In this document: positions 4,574-12,186 of the stretch, in pieces | Layout of the letters: every line of letters starts with the position of its first letter | Numbering within the stretch: position 1 is the first letter of the stretch | Assembly (NCBI GenBank): GCA_009838965.1 | Contig: VXQP01000078.1 | Coordinates: 93,957 to 157,956 of the forward strand | Source of the DNA: Chloroflexota bacterium | GTDB taxonomy: Bacteria; Chloroflexota; Dehalococcoidia; Lucifugimonadales; Australimonadaceae | Direction of reading: 5' to 3' | DNA: 64,000 nucleotides | Notes under the pieces: generated by a model | What the model was told of the DNA's origin: nothing | Databases searched by the model: none | The model's input: the letters and a program-made list of their open reading frames with translations, nothing else | Program-made: the position numbers and the translations under genes

Positions 4574-6004
4574 ATGGCAGAGCACGACCACCATCACAGA
4601 CACGAGCACGGGCACGGCGGCCACGAGTCGCACACGCACCATGGCCACGACCATGGGCACGCGCATCAGGAGCACGCCCACGCTCACCCGCGAACCGCCG
4701 ACATGCTCAGCGTCGAGGACGCTCTCGAGCGCGTGCTGCACCTCGTACACGAACTGCCGGTCGAACGTGTCCCGATCCTCGAGGCCGACGGCCTCACACT
4801 CGCGGAGGACGTTCACTCGCCGTTTGACATCCCTGCGCTGACCAACTCGGCGATGGACGGCTACGCCGTGCGCGCCGCGGACGTTGTCGGAGCGTCGGAG
4901 TCGTCCCCGGTCACGCTGGAGATCGTCGGACAGGTGCAGGCGGGGCAGCTCCCCTCCGCAACCGTGCGCGAGGGCGAGACCGTCCGCATCATGACCGGCG
5001 CGCCGACACCCGAGGGCGCGGACGCCATCGTCCCCTACGAGTTCACGGACGAGGTGGAGCGGCGCTCCACCGGCCTCGCGCTGCGGTACATCGGCATCCG
5101 CCACGCACCGCACGTCGGCGACCACATGCGCCCTGCGGGAGAGGACGCCGCGAAGGGCGCGCTGATCCTGGAGAAAGGGCGCGTCCTCGACCCGCCCGCC
5201 ATCGGCCTCCTCGCTTCGTTCGGGTTCGCCGACGCCCCCGTGGTGCGCAGGCCGCGCGTCGCGGTGCTCGCGACAGGAGACGAGGTACAGACGCCCGGCG
5301 AAGCGCTCGAGCCCGGACGGCTGTTCGACAGCAACAGCTACGGGACGGCGACCGCCCTGCGGCGCTGGGGCGCAGAGCCCGTGCTGCTCGGCATCGCCCG
5401 CGACAACATGGACGACCTGCGCGCGAAGATCCGGCGGGGGCTCGAAGCCGACCTGCTCATCACGAGCGCAGGAGTGAGCGCAGGCGCGTTCGACATGGTG
5501 AAAGAGACGCTCGCGGAGCTGGGCAGCATCGACTTCTGGTCCGTGCGGATGCGTCCGGCCCGTCCCATCGCATTCGGGCTGCTGCGCACGCCGGACGGAC
5601 GCGAAGTGCCGCACCTCGGACTGCCGGGCAATCCGGTCAGTGCGCTCGTGGCGCTCGTGGAACTGGGCAGGCCCGCGCTCGCGAAGATGATGGGACGCGA
5701 ACCGGAGCCACTCCCCACGGTGCACGCCACGATGGACGACGACCTCTTGAACACAGACGAGCGCCGCGTGTACGCTCGCGTGACGCTCGAACGCCGCACG
5801 GACGGACTGCATGCGCGCCTCACCGGCGGGCAGGGCTCCAATCTGCTCACCTCGATGGGTCTCGCGCAGGGGCTGGCCATCTGTCCGGAGGACATGCCTC
5901 TGCGCCGCGCAGGCGAACGCGCGCCCGTGCAACTGCTGGACTGGCTAGACCACTCAGGCATCCTCACGGAACGGCTCGACATCACGGAACACCACATCGA
6001 CTGA
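4574..6004 (+). CDS. moeA: Molybdopterin molybdenumtransferase MoeA with His-rich N-terminal extension
   Basis: MoeA-like core from MLSVEDALERVL onward (SAMDGYAV, TGAP, SGGVS-like ITSAGVSAG). The 43-aa N-terminus has 18 His. Start could instead be ATG 4703. Confidence 0.85.
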   Translation: MAEHDHHHRHEHGHGGHESHTHHGHDHGHAHQEHAHAHPRTADMLSVEDALERVLHLVHELPVERVPILEADGLTLAEDVHSPFDIPALTNSAMDGYAVRAADVVGASESSPVTLEIVGQVQAGQLPSATVREGETVRIMTGAPTPEGADAIVPYEFTDEVERRSTGLALRYIGIRHAPHVGDHMRPAGEDAAKGALILEKGRVLDPPAIGLLASFGFADAPVVRRPRVAVLATGDEVQTPGEALEPGRLFDSNSYGTATALRRWGAEPVLLGIARDNMDDLRAKIRRGLEADLLITSAGVSAGAFDMVKETLAELGSIDFWSVRMRPARPIAFGLLRTPDGREVPHLGLPGNPVSALVALVELGRPALAKMMGREPEPLPTVHATMDDDLLNTDERRVYARVTLERRTDGLHARLTGGQGSNLLTSMGLAQGLAICPEDMPLRRAGERAPVQLLDWLDHSGILTERLDITEHHID

Positions 6005-6016
6005 GAGGCAACCTGC

Positions 6017-6439
6017 ATGACGACGAAGGCTCCCGCTGAAGCCACTTCCCAAGAGAACGACGAGAACCCCAGCTACACCTTCAACCCCGACCTGATCACG
6101 AGGCAGGGGCGCTCCGTTGGCGTCGTGCTGGGAGCACGGCTGTGCGAAGCAGCAAAGGCCAAGGCCAAGGGCAACCCGAGCGACCTCAGCTACAAGGAGT
6201 TGCACACGCTCTTCAGGGTTTGCGCGGGACAGGAGGGCTATCTCTCACCGCAGCACCCCGTACTGGAGACGGTGGTGCGGATACTGCTCGCCACACCGGA
6301 AGACGCGCTACCCCTGTCGGAGATATACGAACAGGTTTCCAACCTGTGGCTCACGTCTGCGTGGTCGCCGTCCCTCAACATCGGCGCGATGCGCCGTCTC
6401 CTCGACCACGCCGAGACCCAGGGCATCACCCGCGCATAG
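6017..6439 (+). CDS. Hypothetical protein (140 aa)
   Basis: Intact ORF with GAGAGG SD-like element upstream of the ATG. No family recognised. Confidence 0.45.
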   Translation: MTTKAPAEATSQENDENPSYTFNPDLITRQGRSVGVVLGARLCEAAKAKAKGNPSDLSYKELHTLFRVCAGQEGYLSPQHPVLETVVRILLATPEDALPLSEIYEQVSNLWLTSAWSPSLNIGAMRRLLDHAETQGITRA

Positions 6440-6900: not shown

Positions 6901-7104
6901 CTACTTGTTGAGCCCGGGAACGAGCTTCATCACCTTCTTGCGGCTGCTCGCGCTCGCGGTAACCGTGTCGCTGTAGGTGCGGGTTACGGAGCGCGGCTTC
7001 TTCCGGCGCAGGTGGCTGGAGTGGCGCTTCATGCGCAGCAGTTTGCCTGATCCGCTCACGCGGAAGCGCCGTGCCGCGCCCTTATGCGTTTTCATCTTCG
7101 GCAT
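6901..7104 (-). CDS. rpmI: 50S ribosomal protein L35
   Basis: [14 protein letters not shown]... is a typical L35 sequence. Overlaps the infC 3' end by 23 nt. Confidence 0.95.
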
Positions 7105-7660
7105 CTTCTTCGGTCTCCTTCGTTGCCGCCGCCTGAGAGCGGCCTGCCGCCGCTCGGCCAGGCGCGAGCACGATGCTGATGAACCGTCCCTCCTGCTTGG
7201 GAGGTTGTTCCAACTTGGCCCCTTCTTTCACTGCCTCGTGCACCTGCTTCAGCAGACCCACAGACAGGTCCCGGTGGTCAAGCTCGCGTCCCCGGTGCAT
7301 CACCGACACCTTCACCTTGTTGCCCTCGTCCAGCAACTTCAGCACCAGGCGTTCCTTCGCCTCGATGTCGTGCCGCCCGATGCGGGGACGGAAGCGCACC
7401 TCGCGCAGCCCCACGTTCTTGTGGGACCTGCGCATCTCGCGTTCTTTGGTGGACTGGAGATAGCGGAACTTCCCGTAGTCCAAGAGCCGGCACACCGGCG
7501 GGTCGGAGTTGGGCGCCACCTCTACGAGGTCGAGGTCGTGTTCACGCGCAAGGGCCAGAGCATCGGCTATCGCCATCACGCCGAACTGCTCGCCTCGCTC
7601 ATCCACTACCCGGACCTGTGGCACCCGGATGCGCTCGTTGACGCGGTATTCCTTAGCTAT
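7082..7660 (-). CDS. infC: Translation initiation factor IF-3, probable ATA start codon
   Basis: IF-3 N and C domains are present. The frame stays open upstream of the track start and reads [23 protein letters not shown] at 7658-7660 is preceded by GGAAGGA 5 nt upstream. Confidence 0.88.
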
Positions 7661-7835
7661 TGCGTTCCTTCCTGCGCCATCAAAGTTGGGAAACGCCGTA
7701 ACGGCGATTCCGGCGCTTCAGCATACACCGTGCACGTCAACCGCGTAAAGGAGCGGACGGCGCTGGCAGTGCCTCAGTAATCCCGGACGAAAACTCGGAG
7801 CGAAACATCCGCCCCGGCGGTTACAGCCGTGTGCT

Positions 7836-8114
7836 TCACAGCCAGATGATCAGTCGATCGAGCCCCTTGGAGCGTAGCTGGTCGTCCAGGTCTCGCTTCC
7901 GCCGGACCGCGGCGGCCAACTCCCGGATCAGAGCGGGGCAATCATCGCCAGGGAGCTGAACGTCGCTCAGCCTGATCCCGGACGACGATACCCACTCCAG
8001 AAGGCTCTGCAGATGAGAACCACACCCGTTGTGTATCCGGGTCCGCAATCTGTCGATCTCCTCCAGGCACGCGTTGTAGCTCCCCATGAGATTGCCTAGG
8101 TCAGGGTTCGTCAT
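7836..8114 (-). CDS. Hypothetical small protein (92 aa)
   Basis: ATG 8112-8114 (MTNPDLGNLMG...) with GAGGAGAAG SD. Divergent from the membrane-protein array. No family recognised. Confidence 0.45.
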   Translation of the reverse strand: MTNPDLGNLMGSYNACLEEIDRLRTRIHNGCGSHLQSLLEWVSSSGIRLSDVQLPGDDCPALIRELAAAVRRKRDLDDQLRSKGLDRLIIWL

Positions 8115-8442
8115 GCGACTTCTCCTCACATCCGGGATATCCGAGCCACGGCGGTCCCCAGCCGTCAGCCTGATAGTCCCCAAATCTCTCTTGACGGACA
8201 ATAACGTTCACGGAGTGACAAAGGGGTAACTTTCGGGCAGATTCGGGTTACGTTACGGTGACAATAAGCTTTCCTGTTCCAACTGAAGCAATGCCGTGGC
8301 GCGCCCGGCGCGCACGCGCACCTCGACAAAAAGTCATGCAGAAGTTGTGGAATTACCTCGCTGGAGATGCTTATCCTGTGTACAGGCAGTCCGGCGCCGC
8401 ACGGAGTGTCCTCCGCGTCGCCGGACGCAAAGGAGGTCGCTC

Positions 8443-8850
8443 ATGCCTGTCGTCAAACGTCTCCTTTCCCTCTATCTCATGCTCGTGGGTCTCGCCGTCG
8501 CGGTGCATTTCATCGCCGTGGCGTGGTACCACCCCGGCGGGGATGAGTCGTACCCCATCTGGGAAGTGCTGGACTGGTTCATGGCGGCCGCCATCGTCAT
8601 CGCGCTCATCAGCACCTTCGTCCTTAAACGACGTCACGATGCAGGCAGCGATACGAGTGTGCTTGAGCACATATCCGTCAACGCGGTCTTCTACGGCACG
8701 CTCGCCGTGGGCATCCTCTTCTTCTGGAACTGGTCCCACCTGCTGAGAGACAGCGGCCGGGCGGACTGGCTCATCTGGAACTTCATAGACGTGGCGCTGC
8801 CACTCGCGCTGGTCGCTGCCGGCCGGCGGTTGTGGCGCGCGGCCGCATGA
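8443..8850 (+). CDS. Small integral membrane protein, subtype A (copy 1), four hydrophobic segments
   Basis: ATG 8443 preceded by AAGGAGG. 135 aa. Close paralog of 9340..9759 and more distant paralog of the two B copies. Confidence 0.7.
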   Translation: MPVVKRLLSLYLMLVGLAVAVHFIAVAWYHPGGDESYPIWEVLDWFMAAAIVIALISTFVLKRRHDAGSDTSVLEHISVNAVFYGTLAVGILFFWNWSHLLRDSGRADWLIWNFIDVALPLALVAAGRRLWRAAA

Positions 8851-8864
8851 GAGGAGATACCACC

Positions 8865-9293
8865 ATGGCCATACTGCTGAAACTGCTCTCCGCCTACACC
8901 GTGCTGGTGGCCCTGCTCGTGGCCGTCAAGTTCATCTTCGACATCGAGCAACCTGAGTGGTCGGTGATCAACTGGCTCATGGCAGCGGGCGTCATCATCA
9001 CACTGGGCGGCGCCATCAGCTGCAAGCGCTCGCTGGAAACCGAAGACGGCGAGCCGGACGTCCGGCGCTTCCTCGACGTGAACGTACCGTTCTATGCAGC
9101 CGTTGCCCTGCTCATCGCCTTCGCCTTCCAGTGGTCCTCGGAGCTGAACGATCACGTCCAGTTGATCGCGGTCGTAAACGGCGAAGACACGGTCATCGGT
9201 TCCATGTGGGCCTACATCGACACGGCGTACATCATCGTTACCGGCATGGTCGGCGTGCGGATGTGGAACGGGCGCTGGCCGATGCAGGGATAG
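8865..9293 (+). CDS. Small integral membrane protein, subtype B (copy 1), four hydrophobic segments
   Basis: ATG 8865 preceded by GAGGAG. 142 aa. Close paralog of 9763..10176. Confidence 0.7.
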   Translation: MAILLKLLSAYTVLVALLVAVKFIFDIEQPEWSVINWLMAAGVIITLGGAISCKRSLETEDGEPDVRRFLDVNVPFYAAVALLIAFAFQWSSELNDHVQLIAVVNGEDTVIGSMWAYIDTAYIIVTGMVGVRMWNGRWPMQG

Positions 9294-9339
9294 CGGAGCC
9301 GCGCCGGTCACGCGGCGGCTGCGGGGGATCGCACACGTT

Positions 9340-9759
9340 ATGGGAACACGCCTGCTCGCCCTCTACCTGATGCTGACGGGCCTCGCGGTCGCCGTCTACT
9401 TCATCGCCGTCTCGTGGCAGTACCCGGGCGCGGACCAGCCGTACCCCGTCGAGCCATACCCCGTCTGGGAGGTGCTGCACTGGTTCATGGCCGTAGCCAT
9501 CCTCATCGCGCTGCTCAGCGTGTTCGCCGTCAAACTGAGGCTCGGACCAGGGGAGGCAGTCCGGGAGCACCTCTCCGTCAATGCACTCTTCTACGCACTG
9601 CTCGGACTGGGGCTGCTCTTCTTCCGCAGCTGGCCTTCTCTGCTCAGGGGCGGCGACTATGACCTGTTCGTCTGGGGCTCAATCAACATGGTCCTGCCGG
9701 TGGTCCTCGCCGCCGTTGGTATGCGGCTGTGGCGGGGAAGCCGCACGAAGGAGCACTGA
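9340..9759 (+). CDS. Small integral membrane protein, subtype A (copy 2)
   Basis: 139 aa. Shares LYLML.GLAVAV.FIAV.W, WEVL.WFMA, SVNA.FY and LFF blocks with copy 1. Confidence 0.7.
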   Translation: MGTRLLALYLMLTGLAVAVYFIAVSWQYPGADQPYPVEPYPVWEVLHWFMAVAILIALLSVFAVKLRLGPGEAVREHLSVNALFYALLGLGLLFFRSWPSLLRGGDYDLFVWGSINMVLPVVLAAVGMRLWRGSRTKEH

Positions 9760-9762
9760 TCG

Positions 9763-10176
9763 ATGCGGCTACTCATCAGACTGCTCGCCGCATACAACAT
9801 GCTCGTGGCGCTTGCCGTCACCGTGAAGTCGGTGTTCGATGTGCCGCAGCCGGACTGGGAGCTCCTCAGTTGGCTGATGGCCCCGGCCGTCGTCATCTCG
9901 CTGGCAGCCGCCTACTGGTTCAAGCGTCGGTCCGACGCCGACGGCCGGAGCGCGGAAGACACGCTGCGCTTCCTGGATGTCAACGTCCACTTCTTCGCCG
10001 CGGCCGTCCTCTTCGTCGGCTACGGGTTCCAGTGGTCCGCATACCTCAACGACCTCGCATGGGGCAGGTCGGGACTCTCCAACACAGGCTCCCTGTGGAT
10101 ATACGTCGACACGCTCGTCATCATGGTCGCCGCGGTGATGGGCGTACGGATGTGGAAGGCTGCAGGGAAGACGTAG
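9763..10176 (+). CDS. Small integral membrane protein, subtype B (copy 2)
   Basis: 137 aa. GAAGGAG SD lies inside the end of the preceding gene, with a 3-nt gap. Shares LL.AY..LVAL.V.VK, RFLDVNV.F.AA, FQWS and GVRMW blocks with B copy 1. Confidence 0.7.
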   Translation: MRLLIRLLAAYNMLVALAVTVKSVFDVPQPDWELLSWLMAPAVVISLAAAYWFKRRSDADGRSAEDTLRFLDVNVHFFAAAVLFVGYGFQWSAYLNDLAWGRSGLSNTGSLWIYVDTLVIMVAAVMGVRMWKAAGKT

Positions 10177-10181
10177 AAGAA

Positions 10182-10208
10182 CAGCGGCCCGCGGTTTGGC
10201 GGGCGCTG
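10182..10208. terminator. Hairpin between convergent genes (possible bidirectional terminator)
   Basis: CAGCGGCCCGC-GGTTTG-GCGGGCGCTG forms a 10-bp GC stem with one bulge. Confidence 0.45.
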
Positions 10209-10236
10209 TCACGAAGCGCCGTGTCGTATCCGTTGC

Positions 10237-10887
10237 CTAGTAGAGGTGCGGCTGCGCCAGCGCGATGACCGACAGCTCGATGTCCGTGATCGCCTGCGAC
10301 ATAGCCTGGCCGATGAGGTCCAGCTTCCGCACCTGCTCGATGCGCGCCGATGCCCGCTCGAGCTCCTCCCGGGTGACCAGCCGCGCGAGGATCCCGCACG
10401 CTTCCGCCAGGCAGATGAGCATCACGTCCCGCGGGTCGGGGATATCGTCGCTGAAGAGCACTTCCATGATCCGCAGCTTCACCTCGCGCTCTTCCTCACC
10501 GTGCACGGAAGGGTAGCGGCGGGCCTTGAACACCCAGAGGAACCGTTCGTCCCGCTCCTCGAGGATGCCTGCGCTTACGAGCCGGGAGAGGGCCTCCTCC
10601 CTGATGGCGTCGCCGTTATGAGCTGTGCGTTCCACCCAGAAACTGAGATTGCGCTCCTCCACCGTCTGGATATCGGCCAGCGTGGGGTCGAGCAGGCTGT
10701 CACCCGTCGGGGTGCCGTCGATCAGGGCGAGGTTCTCGACGTCGGTGTCGATGCGGTTCTCCATCGCCAGGTCCATCAGGACGCCGCCTGCCAAGGCGTA
10801 GTTCAGCGCCAGTCTCGGCACGTGGGCGAACGACCCGTCTTCATCATCCAGGAGCAGGAGGACGATCTCTTCAGCGAATCTCAGCAT
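10237..10887 (-). CDS. GPP34/GOLPH3-family protein
   Basis: MLRFAEEIVLLLLDDEDG...LNYALAGGVLMDLA... matches the pattern I associate with bacterial GPP34-family proteins. ATG 10885-10887. Confidence 0.65.
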   Translation of the reverse strand: MLRFAEEIVLLLLDDEDGSFAHVPRLALNYALAGGVLMDLAMENRIDTDVENLALIDGTPTGDSLLDPTLADIQTVEERNLSFWVERTAHNGDAIREEALSRLVSAGILEERDERFLWVFKARRYPSVHGEEEREVKLRIMEVLFSDDIPDPRDVMLICLAEACGILARLVTREELERASARIEQVRKLDLIGQAMSQAITDIELSVIALAQPHLY

Positions 10888-11080
10888 GATGGTTTGCGCT
10901 CCCTCGTTGACCCGGCGACGCGCCGGGTGGATAAGCCCATTATGGCCTACGCTATAACGCTCCCGCAATGATGCGCCCGCGCCCTTTGTCTATCGATACC
11001 AGGGCCATGTAGTTGCCTTGAAGCGCACGCACTCCTGCCGATGCGCTTGCCTGGTATTGATATGAGTCGTAGCAGACCTA

Positions 11081-11109
11081 TTGACACATCCTTTTCACTT
11101 TGATACAGT
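11081..11109 (+). promoter_or_regulatory. Sigma-70-type promoter candidate for hsp20 (TTGACA-17-TACAGT)
   Basis: TTGACA 11081-11086, 17-nt spacer, TACAGT 11104-11109. Sits in a locally AT-rich island 64 nt upstream of the ATG. Confidence 0.55.
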
Positions 11110-11172
11110 TCATATCAAGTCAAGCGAGCCAGATGATGCAAAGAAGACTCGCGTAGAACAAGGAGGAGACTC

Positions 11173-11634
11173 ATGGCTATCGAACGTTGGACCCCTTTCC
11201 GAGACCTGCGCCGGTTCGAGCGCATGCACCGCCACTTCGGCGTACCGTACCACTACCCCTACGCCGGGGGCTGGGCCATCCCGCTCGACGTTGAGCGCGA
11301 CGGCGACGACTTCGTCGTGAAGGGCACGCTGCCGGGCGTTGCGCCCTCGGACATCGACATCACGATCGAGGACGGCGTCCTCACCATCGAGGGCAGGACC
11401 GCGTCGGAGGGTGAACACGAGGAGGGGGGTTACCTCCTGCGTGAGCGCCGCACCGGCTCCTTCCGCCGCTCCGTCCGCCTGCCGGAGAGCGTAGACGTGG
11501 AGCATGCAGCTTCCTCGTACGAGCACGGCGTCGTGACCGTCCGCCTTCCGAAGGCGGAGAGCAGCAAGGCAAAGCGCCTCACTCTCCACGTCTCCGACGA
11601 GGCCCCGGCGCCCGATCCGGCCCCCGCGGCGTAA
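11173..11634 (+). CDS. Small heat-shock protein, Hsp20/alpha-crystallin family
   Basis: Alpha-crystallin domain (DV.E....F.V...LPG......I.I....VLTI.G, FRRSVRLP, GVVTVRLPK). AAGGAGGAG SD. Confidence 0.9.
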   Translation: MAIERWTPFRDLRRFERMHRHFGVPYHYPYAGGWAIPLDVERDGDDFVVKGTLPGVAPSDIDITIEDGVLTIEGRTASEGEHEEGGYLLRERRTGSFRRSVRLPESVDVEHAASSYEHGVVTVRLPKAESSKAKRLTLHVSDEAPAPDPAPAA

Positions 11635-11641
11635 GCCCGAT

Positions 11642-11680
11642 CCCTTCCCCCTCGATGGGGGAAGGTTAGGATAGGGGTGA
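11642..11680 (+). repeat. REP-like hairpin repeat, family CCCTTCCCCCTCGATGGGGGAAGGTTAGGATGGGGGTGA (copy 1)
   Basis: Near-identical copies at 13422..13460 and 20200..20238. Stem CCCTTCCCCC/GGGGGAAGG. Begins 8 nt after the hsp20 stop. Confidence 0.8.
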
Positions 11681-11757
11681 GCCCTATGGCGGAGTGCGCA
11701 GGGCAGGGGTGAAAGGAGAGCCCTCGCGAGGAATCGCGGGGGCTCTCCTGCGTCTCG

Positions 11758-12186
11758 CTAGAGCAAGTGCGCAGACGGTTCCGGCATTCCCAGGTGTGTT
11801 ACCTCGAGGTCCGGCAATCGCCTTGCCATCTCCACCGCTACGTCCATCCGGTGACACTCGCGCGCGTCCCGCTCCAGGCACATGATGGCAACCGACCGGT
11901 GGCGCTCCAGCAACGCGGCGAGTTCCGGGTAGCCGTCCTCGGGGCTGTTGATCACCACCCTGCCGGCCCCGCTGAACTTCCCCGCGTTCCCCAGTGCCCG
12001 CAGGTAGACGTACGCGATGCCGGAATCTTCGAGCGAAGCCGCCAGGCGGTTCTTCGAGAACTCCGGCTTGAACCTGCTGCTCGCCCACATCCGCACGTCC
12101 ACCAGCGCCGGGACCTCGTGCTCACGCAGTATGCCGATGACCTCGTCCAGGCTCCGCCTCGAATACCCGATCGTGAATAGTCGCAT
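11758..12186 (-). CDS. DUF488-family protein
   Basis: MRLFTIGYSRRSLDEVIGILREHEVPALVDVR... matches the typical DUF488 N-terminal pattern. Confidence 0.7.
   Translation of the reverse strand: MRLFTIGYSRRSLDEVIGILREHEVPALVDVRMWASSRFKPEFSKNRLAASLEDSGIAYVYLRALGNAGKFSGAGRVVINSPEDGYPELAALLERHRSVAIMCLERDARECHRMDVAVEMARRLPDLEVTHLGMPEPSAHLL

Follow-up and report, generated by a model that had tools for sequence, protein, structure and literature searches.

Fluc/CrcB proteins are four-transmembrane (TM) subunits of about 125 amino acids (aa) that occur as singletons, as tandem heterodimeric pairs and as fused two-domain forms. The sugar transporters SemiSWEET and SWEET are parallel dimers of small subunits that have been repeatedly duplicated and fused, with a substrate pocket built from conserved Trp and Asn residues of each protomer. 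Among small multidrug resistance (SMR) proteins, paired genes arose by repeated independent duplications, and the two subunits of a pair carry opposite Arg/Lys biases and assemble in an antiparallel manner (PMC9574504). Here we describe a tandem array of four paralogous genes from a Chloroflexota bacterium (GenBank assembly GCA_009838965.1, contig VXQP01000078.1). The window, by which we mean the whole 64,000-nucleotide (nt) stretch of DNA analysed, covers positions 93,957 to 157,956 of the forward strand of this contig, and all coordinates are counted from its first letter. The quartet, named A1, B1, A2 and B2 (genes 1, 2, 3 and 4, or g1-g4), encodes members of a previously undescribed family of inner-membrane proteins of approximately 135-145 aa. 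With moderate confidence, we favour a reading in which this new four-helix family forms a parallel A/B heterodimer in the clade of the window, the AB module having then been duplicated.

The four genes are adjacent on the plus strand. A1 (8443..8850, 135 aa) encodes a four-helix membrane protein with both termini predicted to lie inside (N-in/C-in), as judged by its open reading frame (ORF), translation, AlphaFold2 model and distribution of Lys and Arg. B1 (8865..9293, 142 aa) is a derived paralogue according to the alignment and the bootstrap of the B clade, and alignment and tree identify A2 (9340..9759, 139 aa) and B2 (9763..10176, 137 aa) as the second A-type and second B-type copies. All four start with ATG. 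An earlier note, made from the letters of this DNA, had listed four adjacent same-strand genes of 135-142 aa with gaps of 14, 46 and 3 nt, and the ORF coordinates agree exactly. Global identities of 57.7% for A1 and A2, 44.9% for B1 and B2, and 34-37% between A and B types bear out the A-B-A-B order and the lower A-versus-B similarity that it described, although its by-eye figures of about 65% for genes 1 and 3 and about 55% for genes 2 and 4 were too high.

Median pairwise ratios of nonsynonymous to synonymous substitution (dN/dS) were 0.20 for A1, 0.27 for B1, 0.27 for A2 and 0.15 for B2, with 18-22 orthologues each. All four genes are under purifying selection (dN/dS 0.15-0.27), B2 being the most conserved. 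Together with a third-position GC content (GC3) of 0.77-0.87 across the quartet and the existence of hundreds of homologues, these ratios identify the quartet as real genes rather than chance ORFs.

Hydropathy analysis gave four helices in the quartet proteins, and an AlphaFold2 model of A1 from a 14-sequence alignment is a four-helix bundle (predicted local distance difference test (pLDDT) 86, predicted template modelling score (pTM) 0.80) with helices at residues 2-29, 38-67, 73-101 and 109-134, in agreement with the four hydrophobic helices originally reported for each protein. The shared motifs LL..Y..LV.LAV.V.F, W..L.W(F/L)MA, (S/D)VN..F(Y/F) and G.R(L/M)W were found in all four proteins, but K(R/L)R, also listed as common to the set, reads KRS in gene 2. 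We defined the family as four-TM, N-in/C-in proteins with W40, W97 and W112, a K62-R63 loop and a G127-x-R-(L/M)-W tail. Against the family hidden Markov model (HMM) the proteins of the quartet reach 173-212 bits, and all of them carry the family motifs.

Searches of known families and structures came back empty. The four window proteins gave no match at threshold in Pfam, NCBIfam, PHROGs or PADLOC, and 90 diverse members gave none in Pfam or NCBIfam; only scattered sub-threshold matches to Chs7, DUF996, TctB, DctQ, TspO and MAB_1171c were seen. Sequence and profile searches of the PDB returned nothing below E 0.01, and Foldseek searches of PDB and BFVD with the monomer and a two-domain model returned only generic helix bundles, none of them below E 0.1. 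The best structural resemblance (6a2j; TM-score 0.39, E 0.6) is not significant. A bundle of the heme A synthase/COX15 (CtaA-like) type was considered and rejected, as the alignment has no conserved His column and position 22 is H, K, Y or N. The absence of a recognisable family, stated in the earlier note, is thus upheld by both the curated libraries and the structure searches, with no confident match to any characterised family. Most of the longer homologues are frameshift artefacts, no fused domain of known function was found among them, and a tblastn search for plasmid or phage copies gave no match.

The distribution of positive charge gives a consistent picture of topology. Across the 90 diverse members, Lys and Arg residues average 7.1 on the side of the N-terminus, loop 2 and the C-terminus versus 0.7 on the side of loops 1 and 3, and the direction of the bias is the same in 90 of 90. 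Inside/outside counts for the quartet are 7/2 (g1), 7/0 (g2), 8/1 (g3) and 10/1 (g4). This uniform bias indicates an N-in/C-in topology in which A and B are oriented alike. Both outward-facing loops, loops 1 and 3, are acidic. In the 90-member alignment W40 is conserved in 100% of sequences, W112 in 99%, W97 in 93% and N96 in 69%, and position 116 is Asp or Asn in 94%. W40, W97 and W112 sit at the outer ends of TM2, TM3 and TM4, respectively; N44/N96 and D/N116 lie beneath the outer surface by one or two helical turns. A second conserved cluster, cytoplasmic, comprises K62-R63, N80, F83-Y84 and G127..W131-R132. No conserved charge was found within the membrane core in this alignment; TM1 carries a mean of 0.26 Asp plus Glu per sequence, with no conserved acidic column.

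Natural fusions bear directly on how the subunits might assemble. P0057 (315 aa) joins in frame an A domain, a 20-aa Arg-rich linker and a B domain, in the same order as the genes. Domain 1 shares 52% identity with g1 and 30% with g2, and for domain 2 the figures are 50% with g2 and 27% with g1. Within the 90% cluster of P0057 there are seven distinct full-length variants of 315 aa, each on its own contig (the longest 1.6 Mb), in which the linker has diverged and the frame has been kept. Other tandem two-domain fusions, namely P0060/P0069, P0062 and P0066, arose independently, in at least three other lineages, since the halves of each pair together in the tree; the P0066 cluster has 25 members, and one and the same P0060 sequence recurs on five or more contigs, which come from three samples. 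The linkers are hydrophilic and rich in Lys/Arg, and none contains a transmembrane segment, which together with the common N-in/C-in bias suggests that the two halves of the fusions are parallel. From these sequence features we infer that the working unit is a parallel dimer.

Within the clade that carries both types, A and B are adjacent and in the same order in all 22 loci. Conservation of the A-B pairing in other genomes, a point raised in the earlier note, is therefore universal in this clade but does not extend outside it. The A-type loop 1 carries the motif (Y/F)H(P/D/E)G(G/S)D..YP.W(E/D).LN(W/Y)FMA, as do the singletons, and A1 has the ancestral form YHPGGD..YPIWE in its outer loop 1. 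In the alignment, 8 aa of loop 1 are deleted from the B-type proteins, whose loop 3 carries an insertion of 4-10 aa (about 10 aa in B1). Because the loop-1 motif is deleted and loop 3 has gained an insertion, B is the derived partner. We still infer, rather than observe, the A/B hetero-oligomer proposed in the earlier note; the P0057 fusion, the co-occurrence in 22 of 22 loci and the joint decay of A2 and B2 described below all support it. Its description as obligate could apply at most to the A/B clade and fails for the family as a whole, in which about 55 of 79 loci are single-copy, and the second pair is dispensable in some lineages.

In a neighbour-joining tree with 100 bootstraps, A1, A2 and P0057 domain 1 form one clade (98/100) and B1, B2 and P0057 domain 2 form another (100/100). 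This topology indicates that the A/B split came first and that the AB module was duplicated afterwards, and it bears out the duplication of a two-gene module that had been suggested for the array. The A2 and B2 sequences fall outside every A1 and B1 sequence, even those from genomes with A-B only. Two loci with an intact A1-B1 pair preserve traces of the second pair in tblastn searches: L019 has a frameshifted A2 (6974-7353) and a B2 with frameshifts and stop codons (7449-7835), and L003 has a broken B2 tail only (7016-7247). These remnants indicate that the second pair was ancestral in L019 and L003 and was lost as a unit, A1-B1 being retained as one. The context of A1-B1 also differs in these two loci, where a sulfite/nitrite reductase gene flanks it on one side and an ABC-2 transporter operon on the other.

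Taken together, these data are consistent with a model in which the single gene that most lineages have encodes a protein that presumably acts as a homodimer, this being presumably also the ancestral state. In a sponge-associated clade of the Dehalococcoidia/SAR202 type the gene would have been duplicated into A and B types, A retaining the ancestral outer loop-1 motif (Y-H-P-G-G-D ... Y-P-x-W-E) and B losing loop 1 and gaining the loop 3 insertion. A and B would then act as a heterodimer, with two such pairs present after duplication of the AB module.

Word-indexed searches returned 24-32 unannotated clusters per query, the few named matches being 'hypothetical protein' entries from Chloroflexi/Chloroflexota metagenome-assembled genomes (MAGs). 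When 1.84 billion representatives were searched exhaustively with the profile, 532 proteins matched at E<=1e-3 and 286 at E<=1e-10; most of the 532 clusters, which are unannotated, derive from MAGs of Dehalococcoidia/Chloroflexota, and sponges are the source of several. Scanning the GTDB species representatives gave 79 loci, nearly all from Dehalococcoidia/Chloroflexota MAGs, with one labelled Latescibacterota. They include a 'SAR202 cluster bacterium' MAG (bin16) and bins named APA_, RHO_ and COS_. We read RHO and COS as abbreviations that mark Rhopaloeides and Coscinoderma bins in the data set of Robbins et al. That same data set includes an Aplysina aerophoba symbiont MAG whose name has the APA_bin format (PMC11706023). 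Copy numbers were obtained by searching all fetched loci with the family HMM followed by clustering. The A1-B1-A2-B2 arrangement (ABAB) was found in the window and 17 other loci, A-B only in L003/L020 and L021, and A-B plus decayed remnants in L019; L060 is an independent two-copy case, and about 55 of the 79 species-level loci have a single gene. A/B pairs are confined to one clade.

The sequences ahead of each gene suggest how the array is expressed. An AAGGAGG Shine-Dalgarno (SD) sequence (8430..8436, plus strand) lies 6 nt before the A1 ATG; because of this SD, and because homologues share the same first Met, we place the A1 start at 8443 and not at the upstream GTG at 8296. For B1, a GAGGAG sequence (8851..8856, plus strand) lies within the 14-nt gap directly after the A1 stop codon, and (A)GAGGAGAT ahead of B1 is kept in 17 of the 18 ABAB loci, locus L010 having CAGGAGAT. 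For B2, a GAAGGAG sequence (9747..9753, plus strand) lies within the 3' end of A2, and a GGAG-type SD before B2, inside A2, is present in all 18 ABAB loci (GGAG; GGAA in L012). An SD inside the preceding gene, which had been claimed for both pairs, therefore holds for gene 4 but not for gene 2, whose SD follows the gene 1 stop. The tight coupling proposed for each pair likewise proved to be conserved for A2-B2, with gaps of -4 to +3 nt in 18 of 18 ABAB loci, but not for A1-B1, where the gap ranges from 14 to 68 nt (median 64). The gap of only 3 nt in the window suggests translational coupling of B2 to A2, and all four genes are probably expressed as a single operon with B2 coupled in this way. 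A GC-rich hairpin (10181..10209) separates B2 from the convergent GPP34 gene and may be a terminator common to both, but it is no more than a weak pattern match, and its T-rich tail lies on the minus-strand side only.

The surroundings of the array are conserved among the ABAB loci. Upstream, on the minus strand, the window and the ABAB loci have IF3-L35-L20 and a small unknown gene. Downstream lies a convergent, single-domain GPP34 (GOLPH3-like) gene (10237-10968, minus strand), followed by Hsp20 and DUF488 genes. Of the 18 ABAB loci, 17 show this set, and the remaining one, L015, stops at the array. An enrichment of GPP34 has been reported for the symbionts of sponges, with the gene in 97% of sponge-symbiotic Dehalococcoidia (PMC11706023, 2025), and this enrichment together with the GPP34 neighbour suggests that the window comes from a sponge-associated genome. 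Other subfamilies have different neighbours: SBP_bac_5/PQQ genes upstream and an unknown 242-aa gene downstream in one case, a Na+/H+ exchanger-CBS gene upstream and two Band_7 genes and PlsY downstream in another, a MetE-like gene upstream in a third, and a methyltransferase downstream in a fourth. Distant members are stand-alone genes beside unrelated enzymes. Clustering the neighbours of 84 loci revealed lineage-specific synteny only and no partner gene conserved across the family, so that the family proteins probably act on their own.

Several further features of these loci were recorded. In the window a conserved 121-aa gene without a Pfam match (7836-8201, minus strand) is divergent from A1, with 241 nt of intergenic DNA separating the two, and at least eight ABAB loci have it. 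Further upstream a plus-strand gene (4574-6004) encodes MoeA (molybdopterin molybdenumtransferase) with a His-rich N-terminal extension of about 40 aa (MAEHDHHHRHEHGHGGHESHTHHGHDHGHAHQEHAHAHP), which may be a metal-binding tail, and is followed by a conserved 140-aa gene without a Pfam match (6017-6439, plus strand). A DUF488 gene, at 11758-12186 (minus strand) in the window and among the downstream genes of L071, L072, L074 and L079, stands no more than three genes from the family gene in subfamilies 13 and 2, which are distant from each other; the arrangements differ, and the recurrence may be coincidence. L004, a close relative with 81% A1 identity, has an IS66-family transposase (10560-11894) between DUF4389 and pheS, which is absent at the equivalent site of the window. 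The fused member P0060 occurs in genomes with a cytochrome bc1/c1 operon and ankyrin/cadherin genes, which suggest that its host is probably a proteobacterial symbiont. A Fic-domain gene lies directly upstream of P0060 in L084-L086 (3838-4899); in L087 it is found at 2034-2948 with another gene between it and P0060, and in L003 a Fic gene (985-2079) is located about 4 kb upstream of the A-B pair.

Among the singletons, the subfamily-8a gene of L039 (5938-6345) is 44% identical to A1. The subfamily-8a gene is 97-100% identical at the nucleotide level across 21 loci of different GTDB species (L039 together with L001, L029-L032, L034-L038, L040-L044, L046, L047, L051, L052 and L054), compared with a median of 87% for A1 orthologues, and some genomes have 2-3 copies. 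In L030, L051 and L052 the identity narrows to approximately 470-550 nt around the gene because insertion sequence (IS) elements (rve/IS3-like and DDE_5) have inserted alongside. We considered gene-level horizontal mobility of this near-identical copy, but the data do not show it: the flanks share the high identity (94-97%), and the breaks correspond to inserted IS elements. The subfamily-8a site is an IS hot spot.

Several observations weigh against the parallel A/B heterodimer and its duplication. A1-B1 spacing is usually about 64 nt, which is not tighter than the spacing between the pairs, and monophyly of all A plus B sequences relative to the singletons has a bootstrap of only 2/100, with B on a long branch. 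The AlphaFold2 model of a natural fusion is only moderately confident (pLDDT 65, pTM 0.58). The family consists mostly of singletons, and each paralogue might therefore retain the ability to homo-oligomerise. If A and B did not touch, each would form a homo-oligomer with diverged specificity and the array would be a local gene-family expansion. The many single-copy loci fit such independent paralogues, since homo-oligomers or monomers must work in most lineages, as do the A1-B1 gaps of up to 68 nt, the separate SD of each gene and the low confidence of the fusion model. However, this arrangement would leave unexplained an A-B fusion kept in seven variants, the fact that A and B are never apart in 22 loci, the joint loss of A2 and B2 in L019 and L003, and the absence from B of an otherwise widely conserved loop-1 motif, which is typical of a specialised partner subunit. 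We therefore regard independent paralogues as rather unlikely.

The function of the favoured A/B heterodimer is less clearly indicated than its assembly. The tryptophans W40, W97 and W112 and the Asn/Asp residues near the outer surface, in the absence of a core charge, led us to propose a site for a ligand, lipid head-group or small solute near the outer leaflet, possibly at the dimer interface, rather than an ion-coupled pump. We offer this site with low confidence. The proposal draws on conservation patterns only, interfacial tryptophans can be purely structural, and neither a riboswitch, nor a conserved partner gene, nor a fused domain of known function lends it support; a structural or anchoring role is a serious alternative. 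In one form of that alternative the proteins would not be a transport pathway; they would anchor or scaffold, at the membrane, a partner that is soluble or peripheral, one candidate being GPP34. The GPP34 gene that directly follows the array here, as it does in 17 of the 18 ABAB loci, its reported prevalence in sponge-symbiotic Dehalococcoidia, a membrane core without conserved polar or charged residues and the conserved cytoplasmic K62/R63, N80/F83/Y84 and G127..W131-R132 would all suit an anchor. Yet the GPP34 gene is convergent and hence not co-transcribed, its adjacency is limited to the ABAB clade while A-B-only and singleton loci have other neighbours, and no partner gene is conserved family-wide. 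The GOLPH3-type tail motif is (F/L)(L/I/V)xx(R/K), and no match to it was seen by eye in the N-termini. In the flanks of GPP34 genes cytochrome P450 is reported, not small membrane proteins, and the paper makes no mention of the genes of the quartet (PMC11706023). An anchor of this kind is, in our view, quite improbable. More speculative still, and a long shot even among these ideas, is a new class of minimal parallel-dimer membrane transporters or receptors that would mark host-associated (sponge-symbiotic) bacteria of several phyla, the A/B heterodimer being a specialised form with a cytoplasmic face that recruits GPP34; if true, this recruitment would be the bacterial counterpart of GOLPH3 docking onto membrane-protein tails.

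If the parallel A/B heterodimer is correct, the quartet belongs to a sizeable family of small membrane proteins, with >500 clusters at 50% identity, whose sources are uncultured bacteria, marine and sponge-associated, and which is missing from every curated catalogue searched. This one family would span the stages of subunit evolution from singleton through heterodimeric pair and duplicated pair to pair loss and gene fusion, with a parallel geometry unlike that of the textbook SMR and Fluc cases. It would offer structural biologists a compact eight-helix unit, and sponge-microbiome research an unannotated gene set beside a symbiosis-linked GPP34 gene.

TctB and DctQ (PF07331 and PF04290), accessory subunits of tripartite, binding-protein-dependent transporters, resemble the family in being four-TM, N-in/C-in accessory membrane proteins of about 140 aa. 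They are also the only curated families with repeated matches, all far below the gathering scores and confined to 3 of 90 members: TctB at E<=0.01 in two (best E 8.8e-5) and DctQ in one (9.2e-4). DctQ further matches g1 at E 1.6, with 9.0 bits against a gathering cut-off of 28.3, and subfamily-8a singletons lie 41 nt downstream of an SBP_bac_5/PQQ gene. That adjacency, however, is limited to one group of closely related genomes. In 14 contig contexts for which Pfam calls had been precomputed (L001-L004 and L084-L093), no TctA, TctC, DctM or DctP gene lies near a member, and none of these four is among the 28 neighbour proteins scanned. NCBIfam gave no such signal, nor did the PDB profile search or Foldseek return a TRAP Q subunit. 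Gene context and sub-threshold scores thus disfavour an accessory subunit of this type, which seems scarcely plausible.

The closest genetic analogues are the paired SMRs (EbrAB and MdtIJ; PF00893) and Fluc/CrcB (PF02537), but the family does not pass the defining tests of either. The layout is the same: small four-TM proteins that exist as lone genes, as neighbouring pairs and as fusions. A description of paired SMRs is available (PMC9574504), and SMR proteins must dimerise, the singletons as homodimers and the adjacent duplicated genes as heterodimers. The quartet and its relatives could accordingly have been antiparallel heterodimeric small transporters too diverged for curated models. Paired SMR subunits, however, have opposite Arg/Lys biases, whereas A and B share a strong positive-inside bias and are all N-in/C-in, and the fusions lack the extra TM helix that an antiparallel four-TM fusion needs. 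SMR proteins also have a conserved membrane-embedded glutamate in TM1, where the family has no conserved acidic residue, and the family proteins are about 30 residues longer. Multi_Drug_Res (PF00893) gave no match to the four proteins at E<=10 or to the 90 members at E<=0.01. Fluc shares with the family its occurrence as singletons, pairs and fusions, but its dimers are antiparallel or dual-topology whereas the family is fixed as N-in/C-in (90/90) and presumably parallel. CrcB (PF02537) had no Pfam match among the four proteins or the 90 diverse members. Rfam gave no match in window positions 7500-10500 at E<=1 and only tRNAs in 12 diverse loci, with no riboswitch and hence none for fluoride or guanidine. 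Charge bias and fusion linkers rule out an antiparallel pairing of the SMR/Fluc kind at the level tested, and we consider such an arrangement almost certainly wrong.

In possible working mode, the closest analogue is SemiSWEET/SWEET, although the resemblance in Trp and Asn residues is one of analogy only. SemiSWEETs have three helices per subunit, the present family has four, and PF03083 (MtN3_slv) gave no Pfam or Foldseek match. By comparison with these systems, the proteins of the quartet constitute a new family on a known evolutionary theme, that of small membrane proteins which dimerise, duplicate and fuse, but on a presumably parallel plan.

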